Part shown: positions 7,244 through 22,354 of the stretch, piece after piece
How the letters are laid out: every line of letters begins with the position of its first letter
Numbering within the stretch: the stretch's first letter is position 1
Origin: Candidatus Omnitrophota bacterium
GTDB lineage: Bacteria; Omnitrophota; Gorgyraeia; Zapsychrales; Aceulaceae
Reading direction: 5' to 3'
Assembly (NCBI GenBank): GCA_029564765.1
Contig: JAKQPK010000013.1
Location: 125,753-189,752, forward strand
DNA: 64,000 nucleotides
The notes under the pieces: model-generated
Database searches by the model: none
What the model was told of the DNA's origin: nothing
The model's input: the letters and a program-made list of their open reading frames with translations, nothing else
Translations under genes and position numbers: made by a program

Positions 7244-9664
7244 ATGCAATACGGTCATTTTTCTTCAGATAGCACAGAGTACATTATCACTAATCCTCAG
7301 ACGCCTTTCCCGTGGATCAATTATTTAACCAACGATCATTACTGTTCCATCATCTCTCAATGTGCCGGTGGTTATAGTTTTTATCGCGATTGCCGTACCA
7401 ATCGCGTAACACGCTGGGCTCCGGAAAATTATAATTTTGATCGACCCGGTAAATATATCTTTTTGCGCGACGAGAATGGCAAGGCTTGGTCAGCGACCTA
7501 TCAGCCTATCCGCCAAAAACCTACATCCTACGCCTGTCATCACGGATTAGGATATACGACCATTCGCTCAAAGAATTTTGGTGTTTTATCCGAAGTGACC
7601 TATTTTGTTCCCGAGGACGATGATTGTGAGCTTTGGATCGTCACGCTGGAGAATACGACATCCAAGACGAAAAAGCTCGAAGTTTTTCCCTATGTTGAAT
7701 TCTTGCTGGGCGATTATCAGGAAGAGTTGCGCTATCGCAATATCATGAATCTTTATAATCGTATTTGGTTTGATAAAAAGCAAAAAGCGATCTTTGCCAA
7801 GAAAACAGCTCAATGGGCGGGCATGAACATTCAGCCGTTCTCAAGCTTGATCTTTTTTGCTTCTTCGCTGAACCCGCAAGGTGCCTGTACGCAGAAGAGA
7901 GCTTTTTTAGGTCGTTATAATAACGAGGAAAGACCACAAGCCGTCCTAGAAGGCAAATTCCAGGATTTTCATCTTTGCTCTGGCGAAGATGGCATAGGAT
8001 CTTTTAAGCATACTGTTACACTAAAACCTGGCCAGCGCATGGAGTTTACGGTTGTTTTGGGCCAGACAGAGAAATTAAGCACTCTTAAAAAGCGTCTGGT
8101 TAATTATAAAAGCGTTGCCTATGCTAAAAAAGAGCTCACCAAGACTAAAAATATTTGGCGTGAACGTATTGTGGGTAACATTGAGGTTCAAACACCCGAT
8201 AACGAATTCAATACGATCGTTAATGTTTGGCTTAAATATCAGATGTATATTTGTAATATTTGGTCCCGTTCTCCGAGCTTCTTCCATGAAGGATCCGGCG
8301 GGCGAGGCTACCGAGATTCCTGCCAGGATTCTGAATCCATTGTTTCCATCAATTCAGCCTTAACGAGAAAAAAGATCTTGAAGATCGCTTCTTTGATCCG
8401 TCGCGACGGGACATCCGCGCCAGGGTGGTCAGAGACAGTTGGGCCGCACAAATTTCTGCCGAACAAAGATCATCAAGTTTGGCTTACGGCGACTGTTTGT
8501 GCGTATATCAAAGAAACAGGGGATGTGGACATTTTATCGGAGCAGGTTCCGTATATTCGCGATAAGTGGGTTGGCGGCTGGCACGAAGATAAGAATTGGA
8601 AAGGCCCGGCCAAAGAAGATGGCACAGGAACCCTTTTAGAGCACTTAGAAAAGAATCTTAGTTTTTGTTTTTCTGATACAGGTGCGCGAGGATTTCCTCT
8701 GATCGGTCACGCGGATTGGAATGATGCGATCGATGCTGCTGGGATCAAGCATAAAGGGGATAGCGTATGGCTGGCCCAAGCCTTGGTACGGTCTTTGCGT
8801 TTATTCGTTGACCTGTGCGAATTTATTGGCGAAACAGAAAAAGCGCGTAAATATTGTCAGATGGCTGACGTGATGGATAAACGTGTTAACGACAAGGGCT
8901 GGGATGGGGAATGGTATTCGAGAGGGTTCGATGATAACGGCCAGGTTTACGGCAGTCGCAAAGATAAGGAAGGGAAGATCTTTTTAAATACGCAAGCTTG
9001 GGCCGTTCTTTCAGGCGTCGCTAAGGACAAAAGGCTTAAGACGGTATTAAAGAGTGTTGATAAATATCTTAACGGACCTCATGGGCTGGCATTGTTCTAT
9101 CCAGCTTTTACTTCGTGGGTTAAGCGTTTAGGGCGTATTAGCATGTTCTCAGAAGGCACAAAAGAGAATGCGGCTGTTTTTTGTCACGCGGCAACGTTTA
9201 TGGCTGTTGCGTACGCAATGATCGGGCATGGTGATAAGGCTTATGAGGCGATGAAAAAGGTCATGCCTAACGCCCAAAAGGACATGGAGCTTTACAAAAC
9301 AGAACCTTACGCTTACGCTGAATATCTTGTCGGTCCTGGGAACCCCTATCGTTATGGTGAAGGAGCGTTCACATGGATCACCGGTACTGCTGGCTGGAGT
9401 TTTATGGCTGCGACAGAATGGGTCCTAGGTGCCCGTCGAGATTTTAATGGCTTACGTATCGACCCCTCGATCCCTCATCACTGGAAAAAATGCTTCATTC
9501 GCCGTCCATTTCGGGGCAGTGTCTACGAGATCACGATCGAAAACCCCAAAGGCAAAGAACATGGCGTCCAGGCTGTCTTTTTAGACGGAAAAGAGCTTGA
9601 TACTAACTTGCTTCCGGCTCTTAATGACGGCAAAACGCATCGCGTTAGGGTTGTTTTAGGATAA
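7244..9664 (+). CDS. GH94 glycoside phosphorylase (cellobiose/cellodextrin phosphorylase-like)
   Basis: It is collinear along its whole length with the Cellvibrio gilvus cellobiose phosphorylase sequence as I recall it (no search was run). The N-terminus reads 'YGHF...EYIIT.P.TP.PWINYL'. Shared internal blocks include 'FFHEGSGGRGYRDSCQD', the catalytic region 'GFPLIGHADWNDAID', 'PHGLALFYPAF', 'GTKENAAVFCH', 'EPYAYAEY' and the C-terminal 'VYEITIENPKG'. Length is 806 aa. Confidence 0.85.
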   Translation: MQYGHFSSDSTEYIITNPQTPFPWINYLTNDHYCSIISQCAGGYSFYRDCRTNRVTRWAPENYNFDRPGKYIFLRDENGKAWSATYQPIRQKPTSYACHHGLGYTTIRSKNFGVLSEVTYFVPEDDDCELWIVTLENTTSKTKKLEVFPYVEFLLGDYQEELRYRNIMNLYNRIWFDKKQKAIFAKKTAQWAGMNIQPFSSLIFFASSLNPQGACTQKRAFLGRYNNEERPQAVLEGKFQDFHLCSGEDGIGSFKHTVTLKPGQRMEFTVVLGQTEKLSTLKKRLVNYKSVAYAKKELTKTKNIWRERIVGNIEVQTPDNEFNTIVNVWLKYQMYICNIWSRSPSFFHEGSGGRGYRDSCQDSESIVSINSALTRKKILKIASLIRRDGTSAPGWSETVGPHKFLPNKDHQVWLTATVCAYIKETGDVDILSEQVPYIRDKWVGGWHEDKNWKGPAKEDGTGTLLEHLEKNLSFCFSDTGARGFPLIGHADWNDAIDAAGIKHKGDSVWLAQALVRSLRLFVDLCEFIGETEKARKYCQMADVMDKRVNDKGWDGEWYSRGFDDNGQVYGSRKDKEGKIFLNTQAWAVLSGVAKDKRLKTVLKSVDKYLNGPHGLALFYPAFTSWVKRLGRISMFSEGTKENAAVFCHAATFMAVAYAMIGHGDKAYEAMKKVMPNAQKDMELYKTEPYAYAEYLVGPGNPYRYGEGAFTWITGTAGWSFMAATEWVLGARRDFNGLRIDPSIPHHWKKCFIRRPFRGSVYEITIENPKGKEHGVQAVFLDGKELDTNLLPALNDGKTHRVRVVLG

Positions 9665-9699: not shown

Positions 9700-12600
9700 C
9701 TAGAAGTATTTTGTGTAGAACAAGCGGATAATGTGTTGCGTATCCACTGTTGGCGTTGAACTGCCGATATAGGGAGTGCCAGTAGCGTAGCCCGTGTAGA
9801 TCGATGGCCCGACACCGTAAGAAGCAGTGATCTTGCTTTCGTCCCTTAACAGATATTGTGTTTCAAAGAAAAAATTGTGATGGCTCTGAAAATCAATTTC
9901 CCCTCTGTTGTTGCCTAAAGAATCTAGATCAAGCAATTTAGTTAGACTGTTCCATCGGCTCCACGTGTATTTTGTGTACATTTGAAGATTTGCTGTTGGC
10001 ATGTAGCTAACAGCCAATCCGACATGGTTCATGTTGTCATCAATAGGCCCTGCAAATTCATTGGGATTGCGGGTGTAGTCCAGATAAATATTCCATTTGT
10101 CGTTGGGCCTGAAATCAAGTCCTGTGCGGAAGATATTGTGGTATTCGTACGGTGGTAGCGAGAAAAAACCTTGACTATAAAGGAAATTGTAGTCGCTGCG
10201 GTAGATCCTTCCATAAGAACTATTTGTGATCGTGCTTGTGTCATTTAATATGCCGCGTGGGAAGTTATCTGCAGCGACAGTAAAATCATTTGTACGTTCC
10301 CAGATACCGCTCCATGCAACCCAATCTGTGAGCCAGTATTTTAAGCCTAAAGATGTCGTATACAGATTGGCATCTTCATTGTCAGGGATAGCGGCATTGG
10401 CCATTTGACCACCGTCAAGACGTGTCATGTATGGATCAAACCCTCCCGTCGTGCGCGGAACATGATGGGCTAGCAAAAGCATTTTTGTTTCAAATCGCGA
10501 ATTTGGCTGCCAACCCCATTCTGTGCGAGCAACTGTTTCAACATATTTATTCGTGCTGGCTTGATGAACATTGCGGATATCTGCCAGACCTTTTAATTTT
10601 GCATCCCAGAATGAAAGATCTGTCCGCCAATTTGCGACATAGCGGTCATAGTCGATACCGTTACCGATGCGGAAAGCGTTAATATCATCCGAAGAGATCG
10701 TTTGAAAGCTAACGGGATCCCGGAAGGTCAGATGGCGCCCCCAGAATTCATCATCACGCGTTTCTAGGTATGTTGAGAGGCTGGATTGAAATCCTTTGTC
10801 CATACGTGAAAGACGAAGGCGTGTTTTATAAAAAGTAGATTGACCGTCTTCTGGCTTGATCAGGAAATAATCCTGATCAGCGCCTTCAAGATAAGAGGAC
10901 GTTTTCATTAATTGTAGATCATAGGCAGATCCTCGTTGCTGAGAATCGTAAAAATCATTGGTTAGATCTTGCTGTAGGTAGGAGAAAGCGTATTGAGCGG
11001 AAACTTTTGAGCTAGGGCTTATCATGAGGCCTGAATCAACACTAGTAACGATATTATAAGCATCTAAATCTTGATTGATAAATCCAAGATGGGCGTTATC
11101 TGTGATGCCGACATAGAACTGCTCAGAGAAGCTTTGTTTTGCGCGGACACTGGTCGCTAAAGCATCAAAGACATCATAGTCTTGCCAGAGCGTTTTTGGT
11201 GAAGCGACCGTTGCAAGGATCTCTGTATTTTCTTTGCTAAAATTTGCCGAAAAGCCGCGCAACGCTGTTAAGCGATTTCCTTCACTGTCGCGTGTTGCAA
11301 AAGCTAGGTCGTCATTCCATTCGCCTTTTGTAAAATCAACAGGGATAGCGCCGGCATTGACATGTCCTGGCTTCCAGTTCGCCAGCCAAGGGCTCTCTTC
11401 CCACCAGGTTCTGTTGTTGGAAAGGCGCAAAGGATCGTCTGAGGACAACGCCTTATCTTCAAGACCGAAGGGGAAGACTTGAAGCTTGATTGTATCGTTG
11501 GGCTCATAGTCTACCCACAACTCGCGTACAGGCTGAAACCACATGTTAAGTTTTGTATCAGGTAAGAGAAGCTTGTTCCCGAATTTTGTATTCAAGGATG
11601 TGCTGGCAACATGACCATTGACCACTTTTAGCTCGGGGATGGACATAAGGTCGCCAACGTACAGAGTGTCGGCATTCAGGCCCATGGTGTAGGCACTGTT
11701 GCCTGCGTATAGGATCTGTACGTCCGCATAATCTGTCCATGTTCCCAGTGCGCCACTATCACGCAATGTCATCTTTTTTGATTTTCCAACATAGCTCCAG
11801 GGGTCAAGGGCAATGTTCGTGTGAAACGAAAAAGGATTGCCAATAGGCTCGATATCAACATCAAATTTCATTTGGCTGTAAATGGCAGGGTCGTAGGTGT
11901 TGATGCGCTGGTTCAGCTGATCCCCGGAGAGAAGGCGATAATTCTTTTCATTGAGGTCAAAGTTCGCGCGTTTCCAGATAAACTCGCCACCCCCGGATGT
12001 TTCAAAGCCAAAGCCTGCGCGTACTTTACCGTGGACCATGACCTCTTCAGGCTTGGTTTCCTGATACTCTTTTTGCTTAGAAGAAAACGATCGATCATCA
12101 ACAGATTTCTGAGGAGCGATGTCTTCATCGCCGAAGGCTTCAAGCATTTTTGCTTCAGAGACAGTCTCAGCATTGAGCGCGGAAGCAAGGGTCTGACGAA
12201 CTGTCCGAGCAGGAGGATGGCTAGTGACCGCCTGCTGGCCTTTTGTATGCTGAGCGTATTCTTGCTCCAGCTCTTTGATCGCGTGAAATTTGTTGAGTTC
12301 GTCGTTAATAGCTTTGTCGCGGTTTTCAGCATATGATACTGAGGATCGCGCGTTTTCTATGGATTGTCGGCAGAGAGGAAGGTATTTGAGGGCATCAGGA
12401 TTGCCAGGTTCTCTGTTCAAGGCCGCTTCAAATTTCTTTGCGGCTTCAACATATTGTCCTTGGCCGTATAAAAAAAGACCCATTTCAGCATCGATATTGC
12501 TAGCTGTTGCTATGAAGGGAAACATGGAAAAAAGAACGAAAACAAAAAACCCTAACGAATAAATCGTTACCGACTTTATAGAGCGGTTCTTTTGGCTCAA
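9700..12600 (-). CDS. large outer-membrane protein with an N-terminal TPR-like region and a C-terminal aromatic-rich predicted beta-barrel
   Basis: It has a signal peptide and a TPR-like 'YGQGQYVEAAKKFEAALNREPGNPDALKYL'. About 700 aa follow with alternating aromatic/hydrophilic beta-strand character, ending in 'LFYTKYF', the C-terminal aromatic signature of an OM beta-barrel. It is transcribed divergently from the ABC sugar operon. Confidence 0.55.
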   Translation of the reverse strand: MSQKNRSIKSVTIYSLGFFVFVLFSMFPFIATASNIDAEMGLFLYGQGQYVEAAKKFEAALNREPGNPDALKYLPLCRQSIENARSSVSYAENRDKAINDELNKFHAIKELEQEYAQHTKGQQAVTSHPPARTVRQTLASALNAETVSEAKMLEAFGDEDIAPQKSVDDRSFSSKQKEYQETKPEEVMVHGKVRAGFGFETSGGGEFIWKRANFDLNEKNYRLLSGDQLNQRINTYDPAIYSQMKFDVDIEPIGNPFSFHTNIALDPWSYVGKSKKMTLRDSGALGTWTDYADVQILYAGNSAYTMGLNADTLYVGDLMSIPELKVVNGHVASTSLNTKFGNKLLLPDTKLNMWFQPVRELWVDYEPNDTIKLQVFPFGLEDKALSSDDPLRLSNNRTWWEESPWLANWKPGHVNAGAIPVDFTKGEWNDDLAFATRDSEGNRLTALRGFSANFSKENTEILATVASPKTLWQDYDVFDALATSVRAKQSFSEQFYVGITDNAHLGFINQDLDAYNIVTSVDSGLMISPSSKVSAQYAFSYLQQDLTNDFYDSQQRGSAYDLQLMKTSSYLEGADQDYFLIKPEDGQSTFYKTRLRLSRMDKGFQSSLSTYLETRDDEFWGRHLTFRDPVSFQTISSDDINAFRIGNGIDYDRYVANWRTDLSFWDAKLKGLADIRNVHQASTNKYVETVARTEWGWQPNSRFETKMLLLAHHVPRTTGGFDPYMTRLDGGQMANAAIPDNEDANLYTTSLGLKYWLTDWVAWSGIWERTNDFTVAADNFPRGILNDTSTITNSSYGRIYRSDYNFLYSQGFFSLPPYEYHNIFRTGLDFRPNDKWNIYLDYTRNPNEFAGPIDDNMNHVGLAVSYMPTANLQMYTKYTWSRWNSLTKLLDLDSLGNNRGEIDFQSHHNFFFETQYLLRDESKITASYGVGPSIYTGYATGTPYIGSSTPTVDTQHIIRLFYTKYF

Positions 12601-12870: not shown

Positions 12871-14151
12871 ATGAAAAGAATACTGCCTGTTGTTCTCGCT
12901 GTTTTTCTTCTTGCTGGCTGCTCTCCACTCATCGAACAAAAAGATACGATCACCATTTGGCATTGGATGACTGACCGCCAAGATGCTTTCACAAGACTTG
13001 CTCAGCAGTATGAGCAGAAAACAGGCGTGAAGGTTCGATTTGAGCTTTATGCGCCTTCTGATATTTATTCTAGAAAGATCGTTGCCGCGGCCCAGGCGAG
13101 GGCTTTGCCGGATATTTTTGGCATTCTTGGCGAGAAGAAAAGACTTGCGCTGTTCGTTGAAAGCGGGTTTGTGGCGGATCTGACCGACGAGTTCGAGAAA
13201 AACGATGCCTTGTGGGAAAAAAGCTTTTTTGAAAAAGCTTTGAACGTGAATCGTTTTGAACCTGACAACGCTTACAAAGTTAAGCCAGGCATTTACGGCG
13301 TTCCTTTGGATGTCACGAATATCCAGATGCTTTACAATGAAGAATTATTTGTGAAAGCCGGCATCAAAGAACCTCCTGAAACATTTGATCAGTTCTTGGA
13401 AAATATTGCTGTTCTTAATCGTCTTGGCATTGATGGGTTCGTTTCTGGGTGGGGCGAGAATTGGATGATCGACTGCTTTTCCTCGATTTATGCTCTGAAC
13501 ATAATGGGGGAAGAGAAAGTGATGGCTACTTATCGGGGAGAGGTTTCTTATACGGATGAAGATTGGATCAAGGTGCTATCTCTTTTTAAGACGATGCGTG
13601 ACCATAAAGCTTTGGTTCCCGGTATCGTAACGAAGGGCAACAAGTACGCAGAGCAAGATTTTGCTTTGGGACGTGCCGCTTTTGCTTTTAACGGGTCTTG
13701 GTGTGTTAATGTTTATGATAAAATGAATCCAGCGTTGCAGTATAAGGTTATGCTGCCTCCGCGCGTTGATCCCGATGTGCCCATGCAAATTTGGGGCGGC
13801 GCAGGGTCTTCTTTTGTTGTGAACCAGACGGCGGGTAACAGGCAACGGATCATTGATTTCTTAAAATGGCTGACCGGCAAGGAGCAACAGGTTTTCCTTT
13901 CCCAAGAAACAAAAAATCTGCCATCCAATCGCGAAGCCTTGTCTGAGATCCCGGATGTCTTGCTTCAGTTTGCTAAGGCAATGGACATCACCACGCATCC
14001 ATCGCTTTGGCCTTATAATGAGTCGCCCCTTGTCACGGAAGCATTTTGCAAAGGTATTCAAGCCATCATTATAGGTGAGGCAACCCCTGAGAAAGTCGCG
14101 ACTGATGTACAACGCCTTAAGGAACGTGAAATGAAAAGGGAGCGACAGTAA
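12871..14151 (+). CDS. ABC transporter substrate-binding lipoprotein for carbohydrates (family 1 solute-binding protein)
   Basis: The lipobox 'LLAGCSP' is present. Size and composition fit MalE/UgpB-type sugar-binding proteins. It is the first gene of an operon with two permeases. Confidence 0.7.
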   Translation: MKRILPVVLAVFLLAGCSPLIEQKDTITIWHWMTDRQDAFTRLAQQYEQKTGVKVRFELYAPSDIYSRKIVAAAQARALPDIFGILGEKKRLALFVESGFVADLTDEFEKNDALWEKSFFEKALNVNRFEPDNAYKVKPGIYGVPLDVTNIQMLYNEELFVKAGIKEPPETFDQFLENIAVLNRLGIDGFVSGWGENWMIDCFSSIYALNIMGEEKVMATYRGEVSYTDEDWIKVLSLFKTMRDHKALVPGIVTKGNKYAEQDFALGRAAFAFNGSWCVNVYDKMNPALQYKVMLPPRVDPDVPMQIWGGAGSSFVVNQTAGNRQRIIDFLKWLTGKEQQVFLSQETKNLPSNREALSEIPDVLLQFAKAMDITTHPSLWPYNESPLVTEAFCKGIQAIIIGEATPEKVATDVQRLKEREMKRERQ

Positions 14152-14157
14152 TCTGCC

Positions 14158-15084
14158 ATGCGTGTTGCTAGCGTGAAGAATCCATCTGCTGTGAACATCA
14201 AAGATCTTTTTGGTAATTATCTATTCATCTTACCAGCCGTTCTTATCTTCTCTCTTTTTTACGTCTATCCTTTCTTTGAAATCTTTTATCTTTCATTATA
14301 TGAGTGGAATGGTATTTCTACGACCCGTCATTTTATTGGGCTTGGTAATTTCTTTGAGATCATGCAGGATAAGGTTTGGTGGATGTCTGTATGGCATGCG
14401 GCATACATCACGCTCATTGCCCTGACCTTTCAGAATGCCCTAGCTTTCGCGTTAGCACTTTCCTGTGATAGGGATATCCGTATGCGCAGGTTTTATCGTT
14501 TTGTTTTCTATCTTCCTCCGGTTTTGTCAGAGGTTGTTGTTGGTCTGATCTGGCGTTGGATCCTGAGCGCGAGCATGCAGGGGGGGGAACCCGTTGGCCT
14601 GCTGAATTATTTCTTGACAAAAGCACATTTATATCATTTAATGCGAGATTGGCTGTCTGATCCTCGAACGGCGTTAACATCGATCGCCATTGTTCACAGC
14701 TGGAAAGGTTTTGGTTGGGGATTTATCATTTTGCTCGCTGGACTACAGACCATCGACCGCCAACTCTATGAGGCCGCACGCGTTGATGGCGCCAGTTCTC
14801 TGAGCATTTTGAAGAATATTACCATTCCCATGATGGTTCCGGTCTTCATCATGGTCATGATCCTGACGATCCTGGGTTCTATGCAGGTTTTTGTTCTGGT
14901 TCTCTCAATGGTGGGACAGGGTTTGGTCTATCATACAGAAGTTCCCGTTACGCGCATTCTTGATTCTATGATCGGAACAAGCCGTTTCGGCTACGCTTGC
15001 GCGCAAGGGATCGTCTTTGGTGGGATCCTGGTCGTTGGTTCTTTTATTTTACATAAATTCTCAAAGAAGGTAAGACAAGAATAA
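14158..15084 (+). CDS. sugar ABC transporter permease (MalF/UgpA-like)
   Basis: Six TM helices and the EAA-type motif region 'YEAARVDGASSLSILKNITIP' typical of CUT1 permeases. Confidence 0.75.
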   Translation: MRVASVKNPSAVNIKDLFGNYLFILPAVLIFSLFYVYPFFEIFYLSLYEWNGISTTRHFIGLGNFFEIMQDKVWWMSVWHAAYITLIALTFQNALAFALALSCDRDIRMRRFYRFVFYLPPVLSEVVVGLIWRWILSASMQGGEPVGLLNYFLTKAHLYHLMRDWLSDPRTALTSIAIVHSWKGFGWGFIILLAGLQTIDRQLYEAARVDGASSLSILKNITIPMMVPVFIMVMILTILGSMQVFVLVLSMVGQGLVYHTEVPVTRILDSMIGTSRFGYACAQGIVFGGILVVGSFILHKFSKKVRQE

Positions 15085-15095
15085 AAATAGGGATT

Positions 15096-15941
15096 ATGGC
15101 TGTTAGCAATTATAAATGGATCAGGGTCGTTCAGTCAGTGTTCTCGCACGTGTTCTTGATTTTTGTTGCTCTGACATGTTTGTTTCCCCTCCTATGGATG
15201 CTGCGGTCATCCTTAATGACCAATGAAACTATTTTTATTGATAAGGCCCTAATCCCGCAAACGCTTCATTTTAACAATTTTTATTTGGCCTGGACGCAGG
15301 GTAAGTTTGGGGTCTATTTTTTAAACAGCATCATCTATACTGCCAGCGCTGTTTTTGCCATCATTGTTATTGCCTCTCTGGCCGCTTATGCGTTCTCTCG
15401 ATTACAGTTCCCGGGAAAGAATTTCTTTTTTTATTTGTTTTTAGCTGCCATGATGATCCCTTTGCCCGGCAGCTTTGTCCCGCTGGTCGTTCTCATGAAC
15501 AAACTTCATTTAGCTAATACGCGCATCGGCTACATCCTGTGCATGATCAATGTCGGTTTATCGCTGAGCATTTATATTCTTAAGACGTTCTTTGATAAGA
15601 TGCCTTCAGCTTTAGAAGATGCGGCGCGTATAGACGGTTGCTCAAAGCTGGGGATCTGGTTCCATGTGGCCTTGCCATTGGCGCGTCCGGCGATCGCCGT
15701 TGTTGTTATTTTTAATACTTTAAATATTTGGAACGAGTATATTTTGGCAACATTGTTGCTGAATCATGAGCACCTGATGCCTTTGCAAAGAGGCTTAATG
15801 GTGTATCAGGGAGCGTACAGCGTTGACTATCCTATGCTGATGGCAGGATTGTCGATCACGGCTGCTCCGGTCGTTCTGGTCTATCTGTTCATGCAAAAAC
15901 ATATTATTAAAGGTCTCTCGGAAGGAGCTACGGCTGGATAA
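15096..15941 (+). CDS. sugar ABC transporter permease (MalG/UgpE-like)
   Basis: The EAA motif 'LEDAARIDGCSKLGIWFHVALPLARPAIA' is present. It is the second permease of the CUT1 importer. Confidence 0.75.
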   Translation: MAVSNYKWIRVVQSVFSHVFLIFVALTCLFPLLWMLRSSLMTNETIFIDKALIPQTLHFNNFYLAWTQGKFGVYFLNSIIYTASAVFAIIVIASLAAYAFSRLQFPGKNFFFYLFLAAMMIPLPGSFVPLVVLMNKLHLANTRIGYILCMINVGLSLSIYILKTFFDKMPSALEDAARIDGCSKLGIWFHVALPLARPAIAVVVIFNTLNIWNEYILATLLLNHEHLMPLQRGLMVYQGAYSVDYPMLMAGLSITAAPVVLVYLFMQKHIIKGLSEGATAG

Positions 15942-18253
15942 TGAAAAAAAATCTCTACCTATCGATCGTTGCAACTGTTCTTTTTTCTATGTTCTTTTTG
16001 TCTCAGGCCTCGGCACAAATTTTAAGCTCGCAAGAATATGTCCGCAAAGCCTGGGAGGCATCTTCACAGAATAACTTTGAAGAAGTTGACCGACTCACTG
16101 ATGAATGTGTGTTGCACTATAATGATCAAGCCAAGCAACAACAAGCGTCCTTAACGGGATTCGCTGACAAGGGGACCGAAAGCCAATATCAGGCGCTAAA
16201 CGATGTCGCAACAGCTTTGTTCATTCACGCAGAGTCTTTGATGAAGCAAGGAAAGACCGAAGACTCCAGAAAACTTTTTATGCGGATCATTGAGGAGTTT
16301 TCTTGGGCGCAAAGCTGGGATCCGCGCGGCTGGTATTGGGCTCCTGCTGAAAAAGCTCAAGCTAGTATCGATAAGCTCGACGGGAAATATGAACAAAAAC
16401 AGGTTGTCAAGGTCGACCGCGGACCAAAAACACTGCCGACCCTCAGCTTTCCAGGAGCAGAAAAGATCATTGACTATAAAAAATACGGACATTTTGTCGG
16501 TGTTGGAACTAAAGAGTATGAATATGTAATAGATGATCCTGAAGGCCTGATGAAGGCTGTGGGTCAATGCATCTATCCGAACACTAGCAGTCTTTTGAAA
16601 GATCCGGTTTACCGCCAGATGGTAAAGGATGGAAAGCTCGGGGGCAGCCATTGGGATTTTGTGCATACGGATGACTTGCAGAAAGCCGTTTATAAATGGG
16701 CTTCTTCATCAGAAAATTGGGGCGTTAAGCTTTTTTACATGGGCCTCTTGTTCGAACGAGCCCATATGTGGTATGAGGCTATCAAATGTTATCGCGCTAT
16801 TCAAATTCACTTTCCACAGTCTGTTGGACGTACTTATTGGAACACGCCTTGGTATCCAGGACAAGCTGCGATCGCGAAAATACGCCATTTGATCAATATC
16901 CGTCCTGAATTAGATCTCAAGTATGTTGGCGCGAAGATCCAGGTGATCAACGGTTTTGATAATGATGTGGCCAACGATATTGTTTTAACTTGGCCCGGGG
17001 AATTACGTAAAAAGAACATTTGGGACAAAGTCCAAGAGAAATTTGCTTCATTTTTTCCTGAGAAACAGTGTGTTTTTAGTCCATCTAATTCCAAGAAGGT
17101 TTTAGGAGCTGGTCGGGTGCGTCTTTTGCAATGCAAAGAAAGCGGACATTGGCAGCTTCAGATCGATGAGAAACCAGCCATGATCAAAGCTGTTACCTAT
17201 GTGGCAACAAAGGTCGGGCAAAGTCCAGACAATGGAACTTTGGCTGATTGGATGGTGGAGGATACGAACCATAATGGAAAACCCGATGGTCCTTTTGATA
17301 GCTGGGTAGACAAGAATCGCAATAATAAACAGGATAGCGATGAGCCAGTTGTTGGGGATTTCCAGCTTCTTAAGGAAATGGGTGTTAATGCGATCCGTAT
17401 TTATAAGCAGCCTTATAATGCTGACAAAGAGCTTTTACGCAAGTTGTATAATGACTATGGCATCATGGTCATTATGGGTGATTTCTTGGGAAAGTACGCT
17501 CTTGGTTCTGGCGCGAGTTGGTTCGAGGGAACGGATTACGATAATCCTGAACACAAAAAGAACATGATGGAGTCCGTTCGTAAAATGGTTGAGGAATTCA
17601 AGGATGAGCCTTATGTTCTTTTTTGGCTTTTAGGCAACGAAAATAATTATGGCTTAGGATGCAATGCGGATAAAAAACCAGAAAGCTATTTTAAATTCGT
17701 TGAAGAAGTTGCCCAGATGATCAAATCTATTGATAAGAATCATCTTGTGGCTGTTTGCAATGGAGATACCTTATTTTTGGATATTTTTGCTGAAAACTGT
17801 CCTTCTGTTGATATTTTTGGTGCGAACGCTTATCGTGGGGATTATGGATTTGGCTCTTATTGGGCGCAGGTTTTTGAACTTACCGGGCGCCCCGCCTTTA
17901 TTACAGAGTATGGATGTCCAGCATACGCAAATTTTCTTAGTCCGGAAGAAGCGGAGCAAGCTCAGGCTGATTATCATCAGGGAGCTTGGGAGGATATGCT
18001 TTTTAACGCGGCTGGATCGAAGGAAGGTGTCGGGAACGCTTTAGGTGGGGTTGTCTTTGAGTGGATGGACGAATGGTGGAAGAATTATGAACCCTATTAT
18101 CATGATAAAACCGCTGGCGCTAAAGGGCCTTTCCCGGATGGTTTTATGTATGAAGAGTGGTTTGGCATCATTGGACAGGGAGATGGCAGCCATAGCCCGT
18201 TCTTGCGGCAACTTCGTAAAGCTTATGAGTATTATAAGAAGGCCTGGAATTAA
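15941..18253 (+). CDS. secreted two-domain protein: N-terminal helical repeat domain plus C-terminal clan GH-A (TIM-barrel, GH5/GH2-like) glycoside hydrolase
   Basis: It has a signal peptide. The 'WLLGNENNYG' (acid/base NE) and 'AFITEYGCPAY' (nucleophile E) blocks are spaced as in clan GH-A retaining glycosidases. The N-terminal ~135 aa are homologous to the repeats of the following gene. Confidence 0.6.
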   Translation: MKKNLYLSIVATVLFSMFFLSQASAQILSSQEYVRKAWEASSQNNFEEVDRLTDECVLHYNDQAKQQQASLTGFADKGTESQYQALNDVATALFIHAESLMKQGKTEDSRKLFMRIIEEFSWAQSWDPRGWYWAPAEKAQASIDKLDGKYEQKQVVKVDRGPKTLPTLSFPGAEKIIDYKKYGHFVGVGTKEYEYVIDDPEGLMKAVGQCIYPNTSSLLKDPVYRQMVKDGKLGGSHWDFVHTDDLQKAVYKWASSSENWGVKLFYMGLLFERAHMWYEAIKCYRAIQIHFPQSVGRTYWNTPWYPGQAAIAKIRHLINIRPELDLKYVGAKIQVINGFDNDVANDIVLTWPGELRKKNIWDKVQEKFASFFPEKQCVFSPSNSKKVLGAGRVRLLQCKESGHWQLQIDEKPAMIKAVTYVATKVGQSPDNGTLADWMVEDTNHNGKPDGPFDSWVDKNRNNKQDSDEPVVGDFQLLKEMGVNAIRIYKQPYNADKELLRKLYNDYGIMVIMGDFLGKYALGSGASWFEGTDYDNPEHKKNMMESVRKMVEEFKDEPYVLFWLLGNENNYGLGCNADKKPESYFKFVEEVAQMIKSIDKNHLVAVCNGDTLFLDIFAENCPSVDIFGANAYRGDYGFGSYWAQVFELTGRPAFITEYGCPAYANFLSPEEAEQAQADYHQGAWEDMLFNAAGSKEGVGNALGGVVFEWMDEWWKNYEPYYHDKTAGAKGPFPDGFMYEEWFGIIGQGDGSHSPFLRQLRKAYEYYKKAWN

Positions 18254-18259
18254 CAATTT

Positions 18260-18289
18260 TTGGCAAACCCGAAGGTTTTATGCTATACT
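18260..18289 (+). promoter_or_regulatory. candidate sigma70 promoter (TTGGCA, 18 nt spacer, TATACT)
   Basis: -35 at 18260-18265 and -10 at 18284-18289. The RBS 'AGGAGG' follows before the ATG at 18351. Confidence 0.4.
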
Positions 18290-18350
18290 CACTTTTACAT
18301 TTGGCCCATAGATGATCTTTTATCAAAATCACAAAAGGAGGAGTAGCGGT

Positions 18351-19208
18351 ATGAGAAAAATTTTTATTGCGGCTTTGTTGATCCTTGGAATTGGGATCGT
18401 GAGCCCTGTCACGGCGTCAGCTTATAATTTTGGTGATTATCGCTCTGTGACATTGACGAGCAAGGCATGGGAAGCCCTTAATGCCGGTGACGTTGAAGCA
18501 GTTTTGGCTTACACCAAGAAATGTATTGAACTTTATGGTGAGCAAGCTAAGAAAATGCAAGCTTCTTTAAAAGATTATGTGAAGGGCACAAACGAGGAAG
18601 TGTTTAAGAACTGGGCGCTTAATGATGTTTCTGTCTGCCTTTTCATCCAAGGTGAAGCCTATCGTAAGGCAAAAATGATGGATGAAGCCAAAGAAGCCTA
18701 CCAGAAAGTTATTAATGATTATAAATTCGGTCAGTGCTGGGATAATGGCGGGTGGTTCTGGAAGCCAGCGGAAGCTGCCAAGGAACGCTTGGACGCGATC
18801 ATCAAGGGTATTAATGTTGATTTTGGTGACATGAAATCTTCCACCTTGACCACTAAGGCATGGGAGGCTTACAACAAAAACGATCTTGAATCCGTCCTTC
18901 TGTATACCAATAAATGTATCGCAACTTACGGTGAAGAAGCTAAGAAGATGCAGGCTTCTCTTTCGGAATATCCATGGGAAAATAATGAAAAGATCTTTTC
19001 TTATTGGGCATTAAACGATGTTGGGACCTGTTTCTTTATTCAAGGGGATGCATATAAAAAAGCAGGAAAGGCAAAGGAAGCAGAAAAAGCTTTTGGTCAA
19101 TTGATCAAGGAATATTATTTTGCTCAAGCATGGGATCCCCAGGGTTGGTTCTGGAAGCCTTCAGAAGCAGCTGAGCAAAGATTAGAAGAAATGAAGGAAA
19201 ACCAGTAA
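18351..19208 (+). CDS. secreted protein made of two tandem copies of a ~130-aa helical domain ('KAWEA...WALNDV...WDPQGWFWKP')
   Basis: The start was moved to the Met at 18351 (MRKIFIAALL...) because the RBS 'AGGAGG' sits 7 nt upstream, and the 18312 Met would lie upstream of that RBS. A signal peptide is present. The two internal repeats share long identical blocks with each other and with the N-terminus of the preceding gene. Confidence 0.6.
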   Translation: MRKIFIAALLILGIGIVSPVTASAYNFGDYRSVTLTSKAWEALNAGDVEAVLAYTKKCIELYGEQAKKMQASLKDYVKGTNEEVFKNWALNDVSVCLFIQGEAYRKAKMMDEAKEAYQKVINDYKFGQCWDNGGWFWKPAEAAKERLDAIIKGINVDFGDMKSSTLTTKAWEAYNKNDLESVLLYTNKCIATYGEEAKKMQASLSEYPWENNEKIFSYWALNDVGTCFFIQGDAYKKAGKAKEAEKAFGQLIKEYYFAQAWDPQGWFWKPSEAAEQRLEEMKENQ

Positions 19209-19273: not shown

Positions 19274-19906
19274 ATGCATAAAGTCGGCCATCTCTTTTTG
19301 ATCTTTTTCCTGGTTGCTCTTTTTGGTTGCGATCAAAATATTAAACCTCAGGACGGAGCGCGAGATAGCGGGAAACAAGGCGTTCATTTCGACCCTTTTC
19401 CTATTTACACAAACGTTGGCTCGCGAGACAATCATTATGTTCCATCAGGATTTATGCCTGACGGGCAATGTATCAGTCTTGATAATCGTTGGCAAGAGGG
19501 TTGCCATAGCGATCCTACCTGTATCAAGATTTCTTATGACGTTATCTGTTCTCAGAAAGGGGCTAGATGGGCTGGTATTTACTGGCAGAACCCCGCACAT
19601 AACTGGGGTGGCCGTAAAGGTGGCTTTAACCTGACAGGCGCTAAGAAATTGACGTTCTGGGCAAAAGGCGAAAAAGGTGGCGAGCGTATTGAAGAATTTA
19701 AGATGGGTGGTATCTCAGGAGATTATCCTGATACCGATACAGCCTTTATTGGACCTGTTATCCTAACGCCGGAATGGAAGCAATACAGCATTGATCTGCG
19801 AGGCAAGGACCTGTCTTACGTAAGTGGAGGTTTTTGCTTTACAACCAACGTTGAGGTCAATCCTGAGCCGATCGTATTCTTTCTAGACGATATGCGTTAC
19901 GAATAA
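19274..19906 (+). CDS. hypothetical secreted lipoprotein
   Basis: Lipobox 'LFGCDQ' is present. The body is Trp/Gly-rich ('GARWAGIYWQNPAHNWGGRKGG') and may be a carbohydrate-binding-like beta domain. It is the last gene before a terminator. Confidence 0.45.
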   Translation: MHKVGHLFLIFFLVALFGCDQNIKPQDGARDSGKQGVHFDPFPIYTNVGSRDNHYVPSGFMPDGQCISLDNRWQEGCHSDPTCIKISYDVICSQKGARWAGIYWQNPAHNWGGRKGGFNLTGAKKLTFWAKGEKGGERIEEFKMGGISGDYPDTDTAFIGPVILTPEWKQYSIDLRGKDLSYVSGGFCFTTNVEVNPEPIVFFLDDMRYE

Positions 19907-19933
19907 TTTTTTGCAAAAGATGTATTTTAAAGA

Positions 19934-19962
19934 AGAGGTAGAGCGATCTACCTCTTTTTTGT
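19934..19962 (+). terminator. Rho-independent terminator
   Basis: Perfect 9-bp stem 'AGAGGTAGA'/'TCTACCTCT' with loop GCGA, followed by TTTTTT. Confidence 0.7.
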
Positions 19963-20075: not shown

Positions 20076-21341
20076 ATGTCCAAAGCCGCGAAACAAGTGA
20101 TCATTATCTTAGGGCTGCTGTTGGTTGTAAGTATCTTTGTTGCCTTCTCGACATTCAGTCAGAAAGCCACAATAGAACAAACTGCCGCGCAACTCCAAGG
20201 AGAAGTTGCGGGATACAAAAAAGACATTGCCACTCTTGATCAGAAACAAAAAGAAATTTTAGGGGAAAACGATCGCATTAAGCAGCAAGCGTCTGATGTT
20301 GCGAAGCAAAAAAATAAATTACAGGAAGAAGTCGATAGCCTTGCAAAGAAATTAAAGGATTTTGAAAAACGTGTTAGCGACGCTATGAGCGAGAGAGACG
20401 AATTAAAAGATCGCTATAGTAAAGTAAGTCGTGAGCGCGACGAAGTGATGTCAAAGTTGCAGGAAACAGAGCGAAAACTCTCTGAGGCTCAGAAGAAGGC
20501 GGAGTCTGTGGTTGCTGCTGTTGCGCCAGCGTCAAGCTTGATCGATGAAAACAAACAACTTGAAAGTCATTGGGCTCAAGTGCTTAAAGAGAAAGCGGAT
20601 TTTAGCCTGCGTATTGCCAAGCTAGAAGACGAGTTGAATCAGAGCGCTTTGGATGTTACAGAATTGAAGAAAAAGAATTCTGACCTAACGCTTGAGATCA
20701 GCGCTCTTAAGCAGGAGCGAGAAGATCTACAGCAGCAGATCAAGCGTGGCCAGGATATCGCGGACAATGTTTCCTTAGATCTTGTGCGTGAGAAGAATGA
20801 CAAGAGATTCGTTGGCTCTCAGTTAGATAAGATAAAAGAGGAAAATCTAGCTTTGCGCGCACAGGTCAAAGAATTAGGCTCTATGAAGATCGTTCTTGAA
20901 AAAAGTATCGCGAAGCTACAAGAAGATAAATCCACCATTGAGAAAAAATTGGCTCAATCAGAGACTGTTATTCAAGAACGTCTCGATGATGTTCTCAAGC
21001 TAAAAGAAGATATCAATCGAAAAGTTCTATCAGATAACAAACCTCAAGAGGTCATCTTGCCGCCGATCATCGTCAACGGCTCTGGTCTCGTGTCAGATAA
21101 ACCTGCTGGATCTAGGCACGTGAACGTTTCCGGCGAGATCGTGAGTGTTAACCAAGAGAATAATTTTGTTATCGTAGACCTCGGACAGAAAACAGGGGTC
21201 AGCATCGGTGATCGCTTGAGCGTTTATCGAGGCTCAGCTTATCTTGGCGAAGTCGAGATCATTCAGGTCCGTGCGGATATTTCAGCAGCGGACATCAAAA
21301 AACAATCATCGCCGTTTCAAACAGGCGACCTTGTAAAATAA
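20076..21341 (+). CDS. membrane-anchored long coiled-coil protein with a C-terminal small beta domain
   Basis: It has an N-terminal TM helix and about 300 aa of heptad-rich, K/E/Q/L-dominated sequence. The C-terminal 'IVDLGQKTGVSIGDRLSVYR...GEVEII' looks globular. Function unknown. Confidence 0.4.
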   Translation: MSKAAKQVIIILGLLLVVSIFVAFSTFSQKATIEQTAAQLQGEVAGYKKDIATLDQKQKEILGENDRIKQQASDVAKQKNKLQEEVDSLAKKLKDFEKRVSDAMSERDELKDRYSKVSRERDEVMSKLQETERKLSEAQKKAESVVAAVAPASSLIDENKQLESHWAQVLKEKADFSLRIAKLEDELNQSALDVTELKKKNSDLTLEISALKQEREDLQQQIKRGQDIADNVSLDLVREKNDKRFVGSQLDKIKEENLALRAQVKELGSMKIVLEKSIAKLQEDKSTIEKKLAQSETVIQERLDDVLKLKEDINRKVLSDNKPQEVILPPIIVNGSGLVSDKPAGSRHVNVSGEIVSVNQENNFVIVDLGQKTGVSIGDRLSVYRGSAYLGEVEIIQVRADISAADIKKQSSPFQTGDLVK

Positions 21342-21346
21342 TTCCC

Positions 21347-22354
21347 GTGAGCGCTAAAAAAATTAGCATTGAAGATGTTGCGCAGCGCGCCGGCGTGTCC
21401 ATCACGACCGTTTCTCGTGTCATCAATAATTTCCCTACTGTTTCCAAAAAAAACCGCGCTAAGGTCGAAGAAGCGATCGCCCATCTTAATTTTAAGCCGA
21501 ATGTAAGCGCCCAGCGTCTTGCTCGAGGGCTTAATACCGCGGTCGGCCTGGTCATGCCTGGCTATCCTGGCATTTTTCATTCTTTTTACGCGATCGAGAT
21601 CATTCGCGGGATCGGGCACGCGTGCGAAACATTGCATTTGGACCTTGTCTTTCATATTACTAATGGCATGAACCCTCTAAACACCAGCAACGTCGGTGGT
21701 GTTATTTTTGCGGATATCATTGAAAACCGTAAACAGTTAGAGTCGATCCTTTCGGAAGGGATCCCATGCATGGTCATCAACAACATCGTAGATGACCTTA
21801 AGGTGAACTTTATCGCTGTTGATAATTTTAAGGGTGCAGAGATGGCGGTCGACTATCTATTTGGGTTAGGCCACACGAAGATCGCGACAGTGACCGGAAG
21901 CCTGCAAACGCAAGGCGGCGTTCATCGCTTTGATGGATATAAAAGCGGCCTGAAGCAAAAAGGCCTTATCTTTACGGAAGATTATGTCTATGAGGGGGAT
22001 TATTCTCGCCGGTCCGCGAGAATAGGATTAGAAAAGTTTTTATCTCTTAAAGAAGATCGTCCGACAGCTATCTTTGCCGCTAGCGATGATATGGCATCGG
22101 AGATCATCAACGTGGCTCTTGAGCAAGGGCTCAAGGTTCCCAAAGACCTTTCTGTGATCGGTTTTGATGACAACCCTATAGGTCTATATGGCTCTGTAAG
22201 TTTGACAACCATTCGACAACCTCTTTTTAAAATGGCCGAAGAGGCTGTGAAGCAGCTGAACGCGATCGTTTCTGGACGTCGTCATTCGCCTGTTAAACAA
22301 GTCTTGGCGCCTGAGTTAGTGGTCCGAGAGTCGTGCGCATCCCCAGGCGCTTAA
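21347..22354 (+). CDS. LacI-family transcriptional regulator (GTG start)
   Basis: The HTH 'ISIEDVAQRAGVSITTVSRVINN' is followed by a periplasmic-binding-protein-like sugar-binding domain. The start codon is GTG at 21347. Confidence 0.8.
   Translation: MSAKKISIEDVAQRAGVSITTVSRVINNFPTVSKKNRAKVEEAIAHLNFKPNVSAQRLARGLNTAVGLVMPGYPGIFHSFYAIEIIRGIGHACETLHLDLVFHITNGMNPLNTSNVGGVIFADIIENRKQLESILSEGIPCMVINNIVDDLKVNFIAVDNFKGAEMAVDYLFGLGHTKIATVTGSLQTQGGVHRFDGYKSGLKQKGLIFTEDYVYEGDYSRRSARIGLEKFLSLKEDRPTAIFAASDDMASEIINVALEQGLKVPKDLSVIGFDDNPIGLYGSVSLTTIRQPLFKMAEEAVKQLNAIVSGRRHSPVKQVLAPELVVRESCASPGA

Follow-up and report, generated by a model that had tools for sequence, protein, structure and literature searches.

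The 64-kb stretch of Omnitrophota DNA analysed here (the window) encodes two adjacent secreted proteins that share an autonomous unit of about 130 residues, and this unit is a variant of the tetratricopeptide repeat (TPR) fold comprising about 2.5 TPRs. Three copies were found, one at the N-terminus of protein A, a 770-aa secreted hydrolase, and two in tandem in protein B. We propose that the unit acts in the cell envelope as a non-catalytic module for multivalent binding, most likely of the beta-glucan substrate, a role resembling that of carbohydrate-binding modules (CBMs) or surface glycan-binding proteins (SGBPs), and we give this reading a probability of about 0.4.

Results

Three module copies in two adjacent proteins

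Copy A spans 16019..16396 on the plus strand (protein A residues 27-152) and was located using tblastn and BLASTP. Copies B1 (18420..18812, protein B residues 24-154) and B2 (18813..19205, residues 155-285) lie on the same strand. Using BLASTP with compositional adjustment, residues 1-180 of protein A matched B2 with an E value of 2e-30 and 38% identity and B1 with an E value of 2e-25 and 31% identity. B1 and B2 were 57.6% identical to each other by tblastn (E ~5e-47), and no fourth copy was detected when the whole 64-kb window was searched by tblastn. Alignment and both searches place the three copies across the two proteins as originally predicted. The three-way alignment of A, B1 and B2 contained 36 invariant columns, including KAWEA, QASL, ALNDV and WD..GW.W.P, and successive modules are connected by a conserved DFGD..S linker. 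The original prediction had described the stretch WDPxGWFWKP as invariant; the WD..GW.W.P pattern is conserved, but the Trp-rich hairpin reads WDPRGWYWAP in copy A (16316..16345, plus strand, residues 126-135), WDNGGWFWKP in B1 (18738-18767) and WDPQGWFWKP in B2 (19131-19160).

The module is a TPR-fold variant with a Trp-rich hairpin

The module begins with a non-canonical helix pair whose long second helix has 24 residues, followed by one canonical TPR, a Trp-rich beta-hairpin (WDxxGWxW) at the position expected for the first helix of a third TPR, and a capping helix. In the AlphaFold2 model the helices of copy A were at residues 30-42, 46-69, 80-102 and 106-119, followed by the hairpin at 125-133 (beta strands at 125-127 and 131-133) and a helix at 135-146, and the models of A and B predicted the same pattern for all three copies. 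Pfam TPR_6 (PF13174) scored 27.8 bits in A and 39.6 bits in B against a gathering cut-off of 26.3, and TPR_2 (PF07719) scored 31.1 bits in B against a cut-off of 27. The TPR_6 match in copy A covered residues 92-120, which is the second helix pair, and TPR_6 matched 35 of 38 sampled modules (E <= 0.01). The Pfam TPR models recognise only about 29 of the roughly 130 module residues. One canonical TPR was detected per module and an array of at least three contiguous canonical 34-residue repeats was absent; the module is a TPR-fold variant and not a textbook TPR array. Its antiparallel stacked helix pairs superimposed on solved TPR domains, with YbgF/CpoB and BamD as the closest folds. Placement in the PDB came from this fold comparison alone, as no PDB chain matched the B family profile significantly by sequence (best E 0.38).

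NCBI and JGI records already label these proteins 'tetratricopeptide repeat protein', and the claim that the module was unannotated did not hold. Nor did the claim that it is not a canonical TPR, given the TPR_6 matches above gathering score in A, B and most sampled modules and the TPR_2 match in B. The novelty of the segment, which had been predicted to fall if it mapped to an existing Pfam or TPR family, was thus largely refuted. What survives is the distinctive self-contained unit of about 2.5 TPRs, Trp-rich hairpin and capping helix, which as a whole has no dedicated Pfam or NCBIfam model and is described by no PDB sequence entry. NCBIfam holds no family for B, and its Ycf3 and YbgF models scored far under their cut-offs.

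Conservation was calculated by position from 228 modules in 150 clusters with no more than 50% identity. The most conserved positions, which are candidate binding residues, were W17, A43, L67-N68-D69-V70, W107-D108, G111 and W114, and W126, D127, G130 and W133 of protein A were invariant among 77 homologues. Because the side chains of a two-stranded hairpin alternate between its faces, the conserved hairpin tryptophans should lie on both faces, with at least one exposed to solvent. The hairpins of the most distant members (P0268 and P0300) were missing most aromatic residues. The fold can therefore form without the aromatic cluster, which may serve packing in a single subfamily.

Protein B and the gain or loss of module units

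Protein B (285 aa) is encoded at 18351..19208 on the plus strand and consists of a signal peptide leading straight into two tandem modules. The open reading frame and a Shine-Dalgarno sequence place its start at 18351, an ATG 8 nt downstream of AAAGGAGGAG, and not at the ATG at 18312. Sec-type signal peptides ending in ASA, read from the sequence, open both A and B. A promoter-like site lies upstream of B at 18260..18289 on the plus strand (TTGGCA, an 18-nt spacer and TATACT, with TG; consensus match only). B had 1519 homologues, the named ones being Omnitrophota 'tetratricopeptide repeat protein' entries, and was 60-70% identical across sampled loci. The AlphaFold2 model of B had a pLDDT of 88.8 and a pTM of only 0.63, and this low pTM despite high pLDDT fits modules strung along the chain like beads.

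The window differed from four further assemblies of its own population by 393 nt, the length of one module unit. The B gene of the window was the same as the L002 gene over the first 612 nt and the last 573 nt, and in the three-module gene the 327-nt overlap of these matching ends is perfectly repeated. Comparison with the L002 gene bounds the difference from the three-module allele to 18636..18962 (plus strand). These sequences indicate that one module unit was gained or lost recently between near-identical strains. Together with a range of 1-7 copies per protein across the family, the one-unit difference bears out the tandem duplication that had been predicted.

Protein A is a probable endo-beta-glucanase with a module at its N-terminus

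Protein A is an open reading frame at 15941..18253 on the plus strand and is 100% identical to P0121, named by NCBI 'glycoside hydrolase family 2 TIM barrel-domain containing protein [Candidatus Omnitrophota]'. It is composed, in order, of a signal peptide, the TPR module, a small alpha/beta region, a second TPR-like region, a beta-sandwich and a clan GH-A TIM barrel. The AlphaFold2 model (pLDDT 86.2, pTM 0.83) suggests rigid packing of copy A onto the remainder of the enzyme, as opposed to a freely hanging module. The N-terminal fusion was kept in 77 of 77 aligned full-length relatives and in at least 65 of 80 species-level loci, in agreement with the predicted recruitment of the module by a hydrolase.

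The catalytic (beta/alpha)8 barrel (17339..18250, plus strand, about residues 467-770) was closest to GH157 and GH158. In the AlphaFold2 model the beta-sandwich (residues 326-419) precedes the barrel, with which the protein ends. The catalytic motifs GNENNYG (E567) and ITEYG (E656) were invariant in 77 homologues and aligned with the GH158(Pro) motifs, giving protein A the clan GH-A barrel, Asn-Glu acid/base and Glu nucleophile of GH158. In BuGH158 the acid/base N136/E137 follows strand 4 and the nucleophile E220 follows strand 7, and the activity of GH158 is endo-beta-1,3-glucanase (PMC7157763). We infer that protein A is a secreted or periplasmic GH157/158-like endo-beta-glucanase, and it looks beta-1,3-specific.

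A cryptic, diverged half-module was tentatively assigned within A at 16730..16891 (plus strand, residues 264-317), with one TPR, a TYWNTPWYP hairpin and a helix. The module profile matched a profile of A residues 160-330 in hhalign with 83% probability (E 8.8e-6), Pfam TPR_2 matched weakly at residues 264-292, and the AlphaFold2 model had helices at 260-273 and 277-290, bridges at 296-304 and a helix at 306-320. Against the single sequence of residues 235-323 the hhalign probability was 5%. The assignment is tentative because the A-type N-terminal module profile alone missed this segment (hhalign probability 2%).

The module genes belong to a conserved import operon

Directly upstream of A is a sugar ABC importer (12871..15941, plus strand) made up of a lipoprotein solute-binding protein and two permeases (ORFs; Pfam SBP_bac_1/SBP_bac_8 and BPD_transp_1), and the stop of the second permease gene and the start of A overlap. 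A cytoplasmic GH94 disaccharide phosphorylase is encoded at 7244..9664 on the plus strand (Pfam GH94, E 1.9e-108); it is closest to cellobiose phosphorylase, with an E value of 2e-152 to PDB 3qde compared to only 3e-42 to laminaribiose phosphorylase. Downstream of B on the plus strand is a 210-aa lipoprotein (19274..19906, lipobox LFGC) for which Pfam, NCBIfam and PDB sequence searches returned no family match and nothing significant, followed by a terminator-like hairpin (19928..19961, plus strand; 15-bp stem, then a T run; consensus match only). Next comes a 421-aa protein (20076..21341, plus strand) in which an N-terminal transmembrane helix precedes a long coiled coil and a small C-terminal domain; by synteny it is a conserved operon member, and its Pfam and NCBIfam matches were of coiled-coil type only. 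A LacI-family regulator (21347..22354, plus strand; Pfam LacI and Peripla_BP_3) closes the cluster. A PDB sequence search with a 966-aa minus-strand protein gave nothing useful.

Synteny was assessed in the 80 best-matching species-level genomes or loci. The order of solute-binding protein, permeases, module-bearing hydrolase, tandem-module protein, lipoprotein, coiled-coil protein and LacI was kept in at least 65 of the 80. The lipoprotein gene directly followed the module protein in 74 of 80 loci, and the coiled-coil gene followed in most loci whose contig reaches that far. Neither operon nor module was described in the Omnitrophota literature that we searched (Seymour 2023, PMC10066038; bioRxiv 10.64898/2026.06.07.730766; literature search including West-Roberts 2023).

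The module family extends beyond the operon

The module profile matched 1326 protein clusters, 903 of them at E <= 1e-10, and the named matches were from Omnitrophota and one Auribacterota. The module also occurs alone in secreted proteins of about 150 aa such as P0290, as would be expected of the secreted, helical and autonomous module that had been predicted. Other proteins combine it with GT2, RHS or Ig-like domains. In P0300 two modules accompany a GH158-like domain and a cellulose-synthase-like GT2, P0327 has a GH, He_PIG and DUF4082 alongside the module, P0268 has CHB_HEX_C, and giant multidomain Omnitrophota proteins also bear the module (P0371/P0394 and P0325/P0393). Stand-alone paralogues sit in unrelated gene surroundings (L052), and those at L040 and L052 are without the lipoprotein or the coiled-coil protein. 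Given these clusters, paralogues and fusions, the module is not specific to this glycan locus as had been suggested.

Discussion

In the mechanism we propose, one module copy is built into the glucanase and two or three copies form the adjacent stand-alone protein, by which enzyme and partner would be held on the same target. Beta-glucan would stack on the exposed hairpin aromatics and be hydrogen-bonded by nearly invariant N, D and Q residues. Once the glucanase had cleaved the bound polymer, the oligosaccharides would enter through the ABC importer and be split by the cytoplasmic GH94 phosphorylase, with the gene set under the control of LacI. Polymer binding is suggested because an enzyme and its non-catalytic neighbour share the module, which the neighbour has in tandem, and because of the variable copy number, the recent unit gain or loss and the beads-on-a-string pTM of B. 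A glycan as the polymer is suggested by the syntenic importer operon, by a hydrolase near GH158/GH157 with invariant catalytic residues, and by the glycan-related domains that accompany the module in P0300, P0327 and P0268. PgaA/PgaB provides a precedent for a polysaccharide-binding TPR domain working with a glycoside hydrolase (PMC9384988). Several observations argue against glycan binding. TPRs, including the closest folds YbgF/CpoB and BamD, by default mediate protein-protein interaction, and sequence and fold searches matched the module to no known CBM or SusD family. The hairpin aromatics are mostly lost in P0268 and P0300, the pTM of A hints at rigid packing of its module, stand-alone paralogues occur in unrelated neighbourhoods (L052), and GH94 resembles cellobiose phosphorylase whereas the secreted hydrolase looks beta-1,3-specific.

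A serious possibility, though at less than even odds, is that the module is a TPR adaptor for proteins, with the B and A copies docking on the lipoprotein or coiled-coil protein and holding the enzyme beside the ABC importer. The lipoprotein and coiled-coil genes follow B with great regularity, the promoter-like site before B and the terminator-like hairpin after the lipoprotein gene suggest that these two genes are cotranscribed, and the pTM of 0.83 suggests that the module of A may be in fixed contacts. CpoB binds TolA, and the coiled-coil protein has a TolA-like topology, which is an analogy only. Yet 1-7 copies with strain-level gain and loss of units would be unusual for a stoichiometric adaptor, the paralogues at L040 and L052 lack both partners, and the giant multidomain proteins carry the module where no such partner is apparent. 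In other bacteria SLH, LysM and PG-binding repeats anchor proteins to the envelope, and the module might likewise bind the cell's own peptidoglycan or surface polysaccharide and retain exported proteins. The variable copy number on enzyme and non-enzymes, the giant proteins and the small secreted single-module proteins are compatible with this; it is nonetheless improbable, as Pfam, NCBIfam and fold searches gave no similarity to known wall-binding families and tight linkage to a LacI-regulated catabolic import operon better suits substrate handling.

A purely intramolecular role, in which the module only stabilises or gates the catalytic domain of A and B is a derived decoy or chaperone, would agree with the rigid multidomain arrangement implied by the pTM of A and with the cryptic half-module, which suggests a single structural platform built from the TPR parts. 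It does not account for the wide occurrence of stand-alone proteins with 1-7 modules, the other domain partners or the strong conservation of B, and we regard it as quite unlikely. Chance similarity or biased composition, with no real repeated domain, has next to no likelihood: it is refuted by the compositionally adjusted BLASTP values, by tblastn, by the clusters matched at E <= 1e-10 and by the shared predicted secondary structure of the three copies, and no point in its support was found.

Our finding refines an existing annotation and does not amount to a system of a new kind. Little is understood of the Omnitrophota, which are uncultured, and this operon is among their most consistently conserved gene clusters. 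A shared TPR-based unit in two unexplained secreted proteins offers a handle on how Omnitrophota capture beta-glucans, and the 131-position profile separates the unit from generic 'TPR protein' annotations. If glycan binding is true, the carbohydrate-binding modules, most of which are beta-sandwiches, gain a helical-repeat scaffold; if protein binding is true, the unit is the hub of a new envelope complex. It is a more speculative and rather doubtful proposition that the Trp-hairpin TPR unit is a new helical carbohydrate-binding module family found mainly in Omnitrophota, and that the hydrolase, tandem-module protein, lipoprotein and coiled-coil protein form an undescribed glucan-harvesting envelope apparatus, which would be a core trait of bacteria that are ultra-small and possibly host-dependent and could act on partner-cell glycans.

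Comparison with known systems

A barrel of clan GH-A with an N-E acid/base and an E nucleophile is common to protein A, GH158 and GH157. BuGH158 lacks the approximately 460 extra N-terminal residues of A (TPR module, alpha/beta region, second TPR-like part and beta-sandwich) and has a C-terminal Ig-like domain that A does not (PMC7157763). The Bacteroides beta(1,3)-glucan locus with BuGH158 has a similar layout, grouping an importer and a non-catalytic binding protein with a GH158-like endo-glucanase (PMC7157763), although binding is presumed for the protein here, and uptake is by an ABC system in place of a SusC-type TonB-dependent transporter. As with CBMs, SGBP-A and SGBP-B, the module is present on the enzyme and, multiplied, on a non-enzyme. 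SusD is also a TPR scaffold with aromatic loops, but the module matches neither SusD nor any CBM family in sequence or fold.

The second helix pair resembles YbgF/CpoB (PDB 2xev) and TPR_6/TPR_2 above Pfam gathering thresholds, and YbgF/CpoB, like the module proteins, is exported into a diderm cell envelope. The module differs from these in its elongated second helix, in the beta-hairpin replacing the first helix of the third TPR, and in that its units are separate beads with DFGD linkers and not one continuous superhelix. B was rejected as a YbgF/CpoB orthologue: NCBIfam TIGR02795 (tol_pal_ybgF) scored 16.7 bits against a cut-off of 90.1, there was no tol-pal neighbourhood and B has no N-terminal trimerising coiled coil.

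In PgaA, BcsC, PelB and AlgK, periplasmic TPR domains function together with a glycoside hydrolase, and the TPR domain of PgaA itself binds the polysaccharide (PMC9384988). The relative P0300 comes near to these exopolysaccharide systems by fusing a GH158-like domain, two modules and a GT2. The locus described here has neither an outer-membrane barrel nor a synthase and is of catabolic, import type (solute-binding protein, permeases, GH94 phosphorylase and LacI), and where PgaA-type systems have long continuous TPR superhelices its proteins are built from independent 130-aa units.

A repeated module in two adjacent secreted proteins

The gene for the hydrolase, protein A (15941-18253, forward strand, 770 aa), has a start codon overlapping the stop codon of the preceding ABC permease gene and is followed in the same direction by the gene for protein B (18351-19208, forward strand, 285 aa), whose ATG lies 8 nt downstream of AAAGGAGGAG. 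A longer open reading frame from 18312 provides an alternative start for B that its homologues do not use. Both proteins carry an N-terminal Sec-type signal peptide ending in ASA. The original prediction placed one repeated segment once in A and twice in B, and BLASTP and tblastn confirmed this arrangement along with the conserved blocks quoted for it. Residues 1-180 of A matched the second half of B (E 2e-30, 38% identity) and the first half (E 2e-25, 31%) by BLASTP, and the two halves of B were 57.6% identical to each other. Three-way alignment of the copies gave 36 invariant columns, and chance similarity among them is excluded. Searching with the three segments by tblastn detected no further copies in the whole 64-kb window. 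The Trp-rich stretch was indeed conserved, but as WD..GW.W.P rather than as the strictly invariant WDPxGWFWKP that had been proposed.

Between its module and its catalytic barrel, the AlphaFold2 model of A contains a small alpha/beta region, a second TPR-like part and a beta-sandwich. Residues 264-317 (16730-16891) run from one TPR through a TYWNTPWYP hairpin to a helix, and hhalign of family profiles aligned them with the module's second half (probability 83%, E 8.8e-6). This segment was missed when the A-type module profile was used alone and is tentatively assigned as a diverged half-copy of the module.

The module is a variant of the TPR fold

Pfam TPR_6 matched both proteins above its gathering cut-off of 26.3 bits (B, 39.6 bits; A, 27.8 bits), TPR_2 was likewise above threshold in B, and in a sample of 38 modules drawn from proteins of both types TPR_6 matched 35. 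These matches cover the second helix pair only, about 29 of the roughly 130 residues; no model spanning the whole module was found in Pfam or NCBIfam, and the B-family profile found no relatives among PDB sequences. AlphaFold2 modeling of B with 85 homologues as input (mean pLDDT 88.8, pTM 0.63) gave each module the order helix, long helix, short helix, helix, helix, two-stranded beta-hairpin (WDxxGWFW) and capping helix, and the N-terminal module of A showed the identical pattern in its own model (pLDDT 86.2, pTM 0.83). The Pfam matches together with this helix pattern demonstrate that the module is a TPR, a variant of a fold already known, and the above-threshold matches largely remove the ground for calling it a new domain family. 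What is distinctive is the packaging, a self-contained unit of about 2.5 TPRs in which a Trp-rich hairpin takes the place of the third repeat's first helix. The best-conserved positions across 228 modules (150 diverse clusters) were W17, A43, L67-N68-D69-V70, W107-D108, G111 and W114. Modules are joined by a conserved DFGD..S linker, and the modest pTM of the B model despite its high pLDDT fits modules arranged as independent beads rather than as one superhelix. The module is non-catalytic, exported and autonomous; it recurs in varying numbers and forms part of both a predicted glucanase and the protein encoded next to it, inside a conserved sugar-import operon.

Module copy number varies

Protein B of the window has two modules, while four other assemblies of the same population (L001, an NCBI MAG; L002, a JGI 288-kb contig; L003, an ENA contig; and L007) encode a 416-aa B with three. 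The three-module gene was identical in the first three (10001-11251 in L001 and L002, 1451-2701 in L003) and the L007 protein was about 98% identical over the module matched. Up to position 18962 the window and L002 were 100% identical; beyond it, exactly 393 nt are missing from the window. The window B gene equals the three-module gene across its first 612 nt and last 573 nt, and therefore the junction falls inside a 327-nt perfect repeat (18636-18962). Either the repeats recombined and a real deletion resulted, or the assembly collapsed here. Three modules are also found in more distant relatives (68-75% identity), where the middle one is the same kind of hybrid, resembling module 3 in its first half and module 1 in its second. 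Within the genus Aceula the count is two in one species and three in another. These differences among relatives indicate that gain and loss of the tandem unit is real in this family, bearing out the proposed tandem duplication.

Distribution and domain partners

Searching with B returned 1519 homologues, and those with a source name were all from Candidatus Omnitrophota and all titled 'tetratricopeptide repeat protein'. A public protein 100% identical to A is titled 'glycoside hydrolase family 2 TIM barrel-domain containing protein' at NCBI, and the full architecture of A, including the N-terminal module, was kept in 77/77 aligned full-length relatives at about 58% identity. With a single-module profile as query, a search of 1.84 billion cluster representatives matched 1326 clusters at E <= 0.001, 903 of them at E <= 1e-10, in proteins of 133 to 1998 aa carrying 1 to 7 modules; a Candidatus Auribacterota protein was present in one cluster. 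Secreted single-module proteins also occur, for example one of 149 aa (P0290). Elsewhere the module accompanies a GH barrel, He_PIG and DUF4082 (P0327), CHB_HEX_C and Ig-like domains (P0268), or RHS repeats (P0325). In the most distant members the hairpin is reduced to AQ..D..G..[WYF], which makes the full Trp cluster characteristic of a subfamily.

In the 1202-aa relative P0300, from a 5.9-kb ENA contig, one polypeptide carries a transmembrane helix, a GH158-like domain and a cellulose-synthase-like GT2 along with two modules whose hairpins are degenerate, a fusion that hints at module use in glucan synthesis or processing instead of catabolism in some lineages.

The module is tied to a conserved operon

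Scanning one genome per GTDB species gave 544 stretches encoding a relative, of which the best 80 were annotated with our own profiles; all 80 were from Omnitrophota metagenome-assembled genomes. Many operon-bearing loci (L007, L012, L014 and others) are titled 'uncultured Planctomycetales bacterium' (binchicken co-assembly MAGs), which looks like a submitter placeholder and not a real taxonomic placement. Among these best 80 loci the fused hydrolase lay immediately upstream of the tandem-module protein in at least 65 and was truncated by the contig end in 5 more, and a lipoprotein of about 210 aa followed immediately downstream in 74. The usual order was GH94, solute-binding protein, two permeases, GH with one module, protein with 2-3 modules, lipoprotein, coiled-coil membrane protein, LacI and MnmG, and independent gene calls on three distant contigs gave the same order. 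A few genomes encode additional stand-alone tandem-module paralogues elsewhere, one of them (locus L052) with acetyl-CoA synthetase, Sir2 and a response regulator as neighbors. The module is therefore linked to the operon without being confined to it, contrary to the suggestion that it was specific to this glycan locus.

In the window the conserved lipoprotein (19274-19906, 210 aa) and the coiled-coil protein (20076-21341), which has an N-terminal transmembrane helix, a coiled coil of about 300 residues and a small C-terminal domain, both have no family assignment. By consensus match only, a promoter-like site (18260-18289; TTGGCA, 18-nt spacer, TATACT, with TG) lies 5' of the B gene and a strong terminator-like hairpin (19928-19961) lies 3' of the lipoprotein gene, suggesting possible transcription of this pair as a separate unit within the cluster. 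A 966-aa open reading frame on the minus strand (9700-12600) had no match in Pfam and PDB sequence searches. Its homologue in two other loci (L049 and L050) is on the plus strand within the operon, between the lipoprotein and coiled-coil genes, and the product may be an additional component of the system.

Protein A is a predicted endo-beta-glucanase

The catalytic domain of A (17339-18250) is a clan GH-A barrel closest to families GH158 and GH157. The top Foldseek ranks were GH158 structures (E about 3e-14), including BuGH158, an endo-laminarinase from a Bacteroides uniformis beta(1,3)-glucan locus. The A-family profile matched GH158(Pro) with E 2e-15, GNENNYG and ITEYG aligned with the catalytic motifs, and E567 and E656 were invariant in 77 homologues. 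GH158 is a characterised family of retaining endo-beta(1,3)-glucanases (PMC7157763). Because of this closeness to GH158, the aligned motifs and the invariant glutamates, A is probably an endo-beta-glucanase, with beta-1,3 its most likely predicted specificity. The cytoplasmic GH94 (7244-9664) matched cellobiose phosphorylase (E 2e-152) far better than laminaribiose phosphorylase (E 3e-42), not an obvious fit for a purely beta-1,3-linked substrate; the operon substrate could be a mixed-linkage glucan. The GH94 homologue of another locus (L005) is 908 aa long and differs in its N-terminal domain.

Novelty and proposed function of the module

The repeat is real and biologically meaningful yet a variant of a known fold, and its host proteins already carry a generic TPR-protein annotation. 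What is new here is that a distinct TPR unit of 130 residues, marked by a Trp hairpin, has been delimited, that it is associated across the phylum Omnitrophota with a GH157/158-like glucanase operon, and that its copy number varies.

We propose that the module would bind one common target and so keep A and the tandem-module protein together there. The target we tentatively favor, with a probability of about 40%, is the glucan substrate. A strong competitor, itself short of even odds, is an ordinary protein-protein scaffold docking onto the adjacent lipoprotein or the coiled-coil protein, which fits the usual role of the TPR fold and the closest structural matches; the promoter-like site 5' of B and the terminator-like hairpin 3' of the lipoprotein gene would also fit. 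The topology of the coiled-coil protein is TolA-like beside a CpoB-like TPR fold, by analogy only. A role in attaching proteins to one of the cell's own envelope polymers is unlikely, and a purely intramolecular role even less probable. Binding to the glucan is favored because a module present on an enzyme, in tandem on a non-enzyme and changing quickly in copy number is the usual signature of polymer binding, and because the domains that accompany it are mostly glycan-related. Its conserved residues are also aromatic and polar, and the hairpin geometry should put at least one conserved Trp on the exposed face. Glucan binding by such a fold would further have a precedent in PgaA, where a TPR domain binds polysaccharide beside a hydrolase (PMC9384988).
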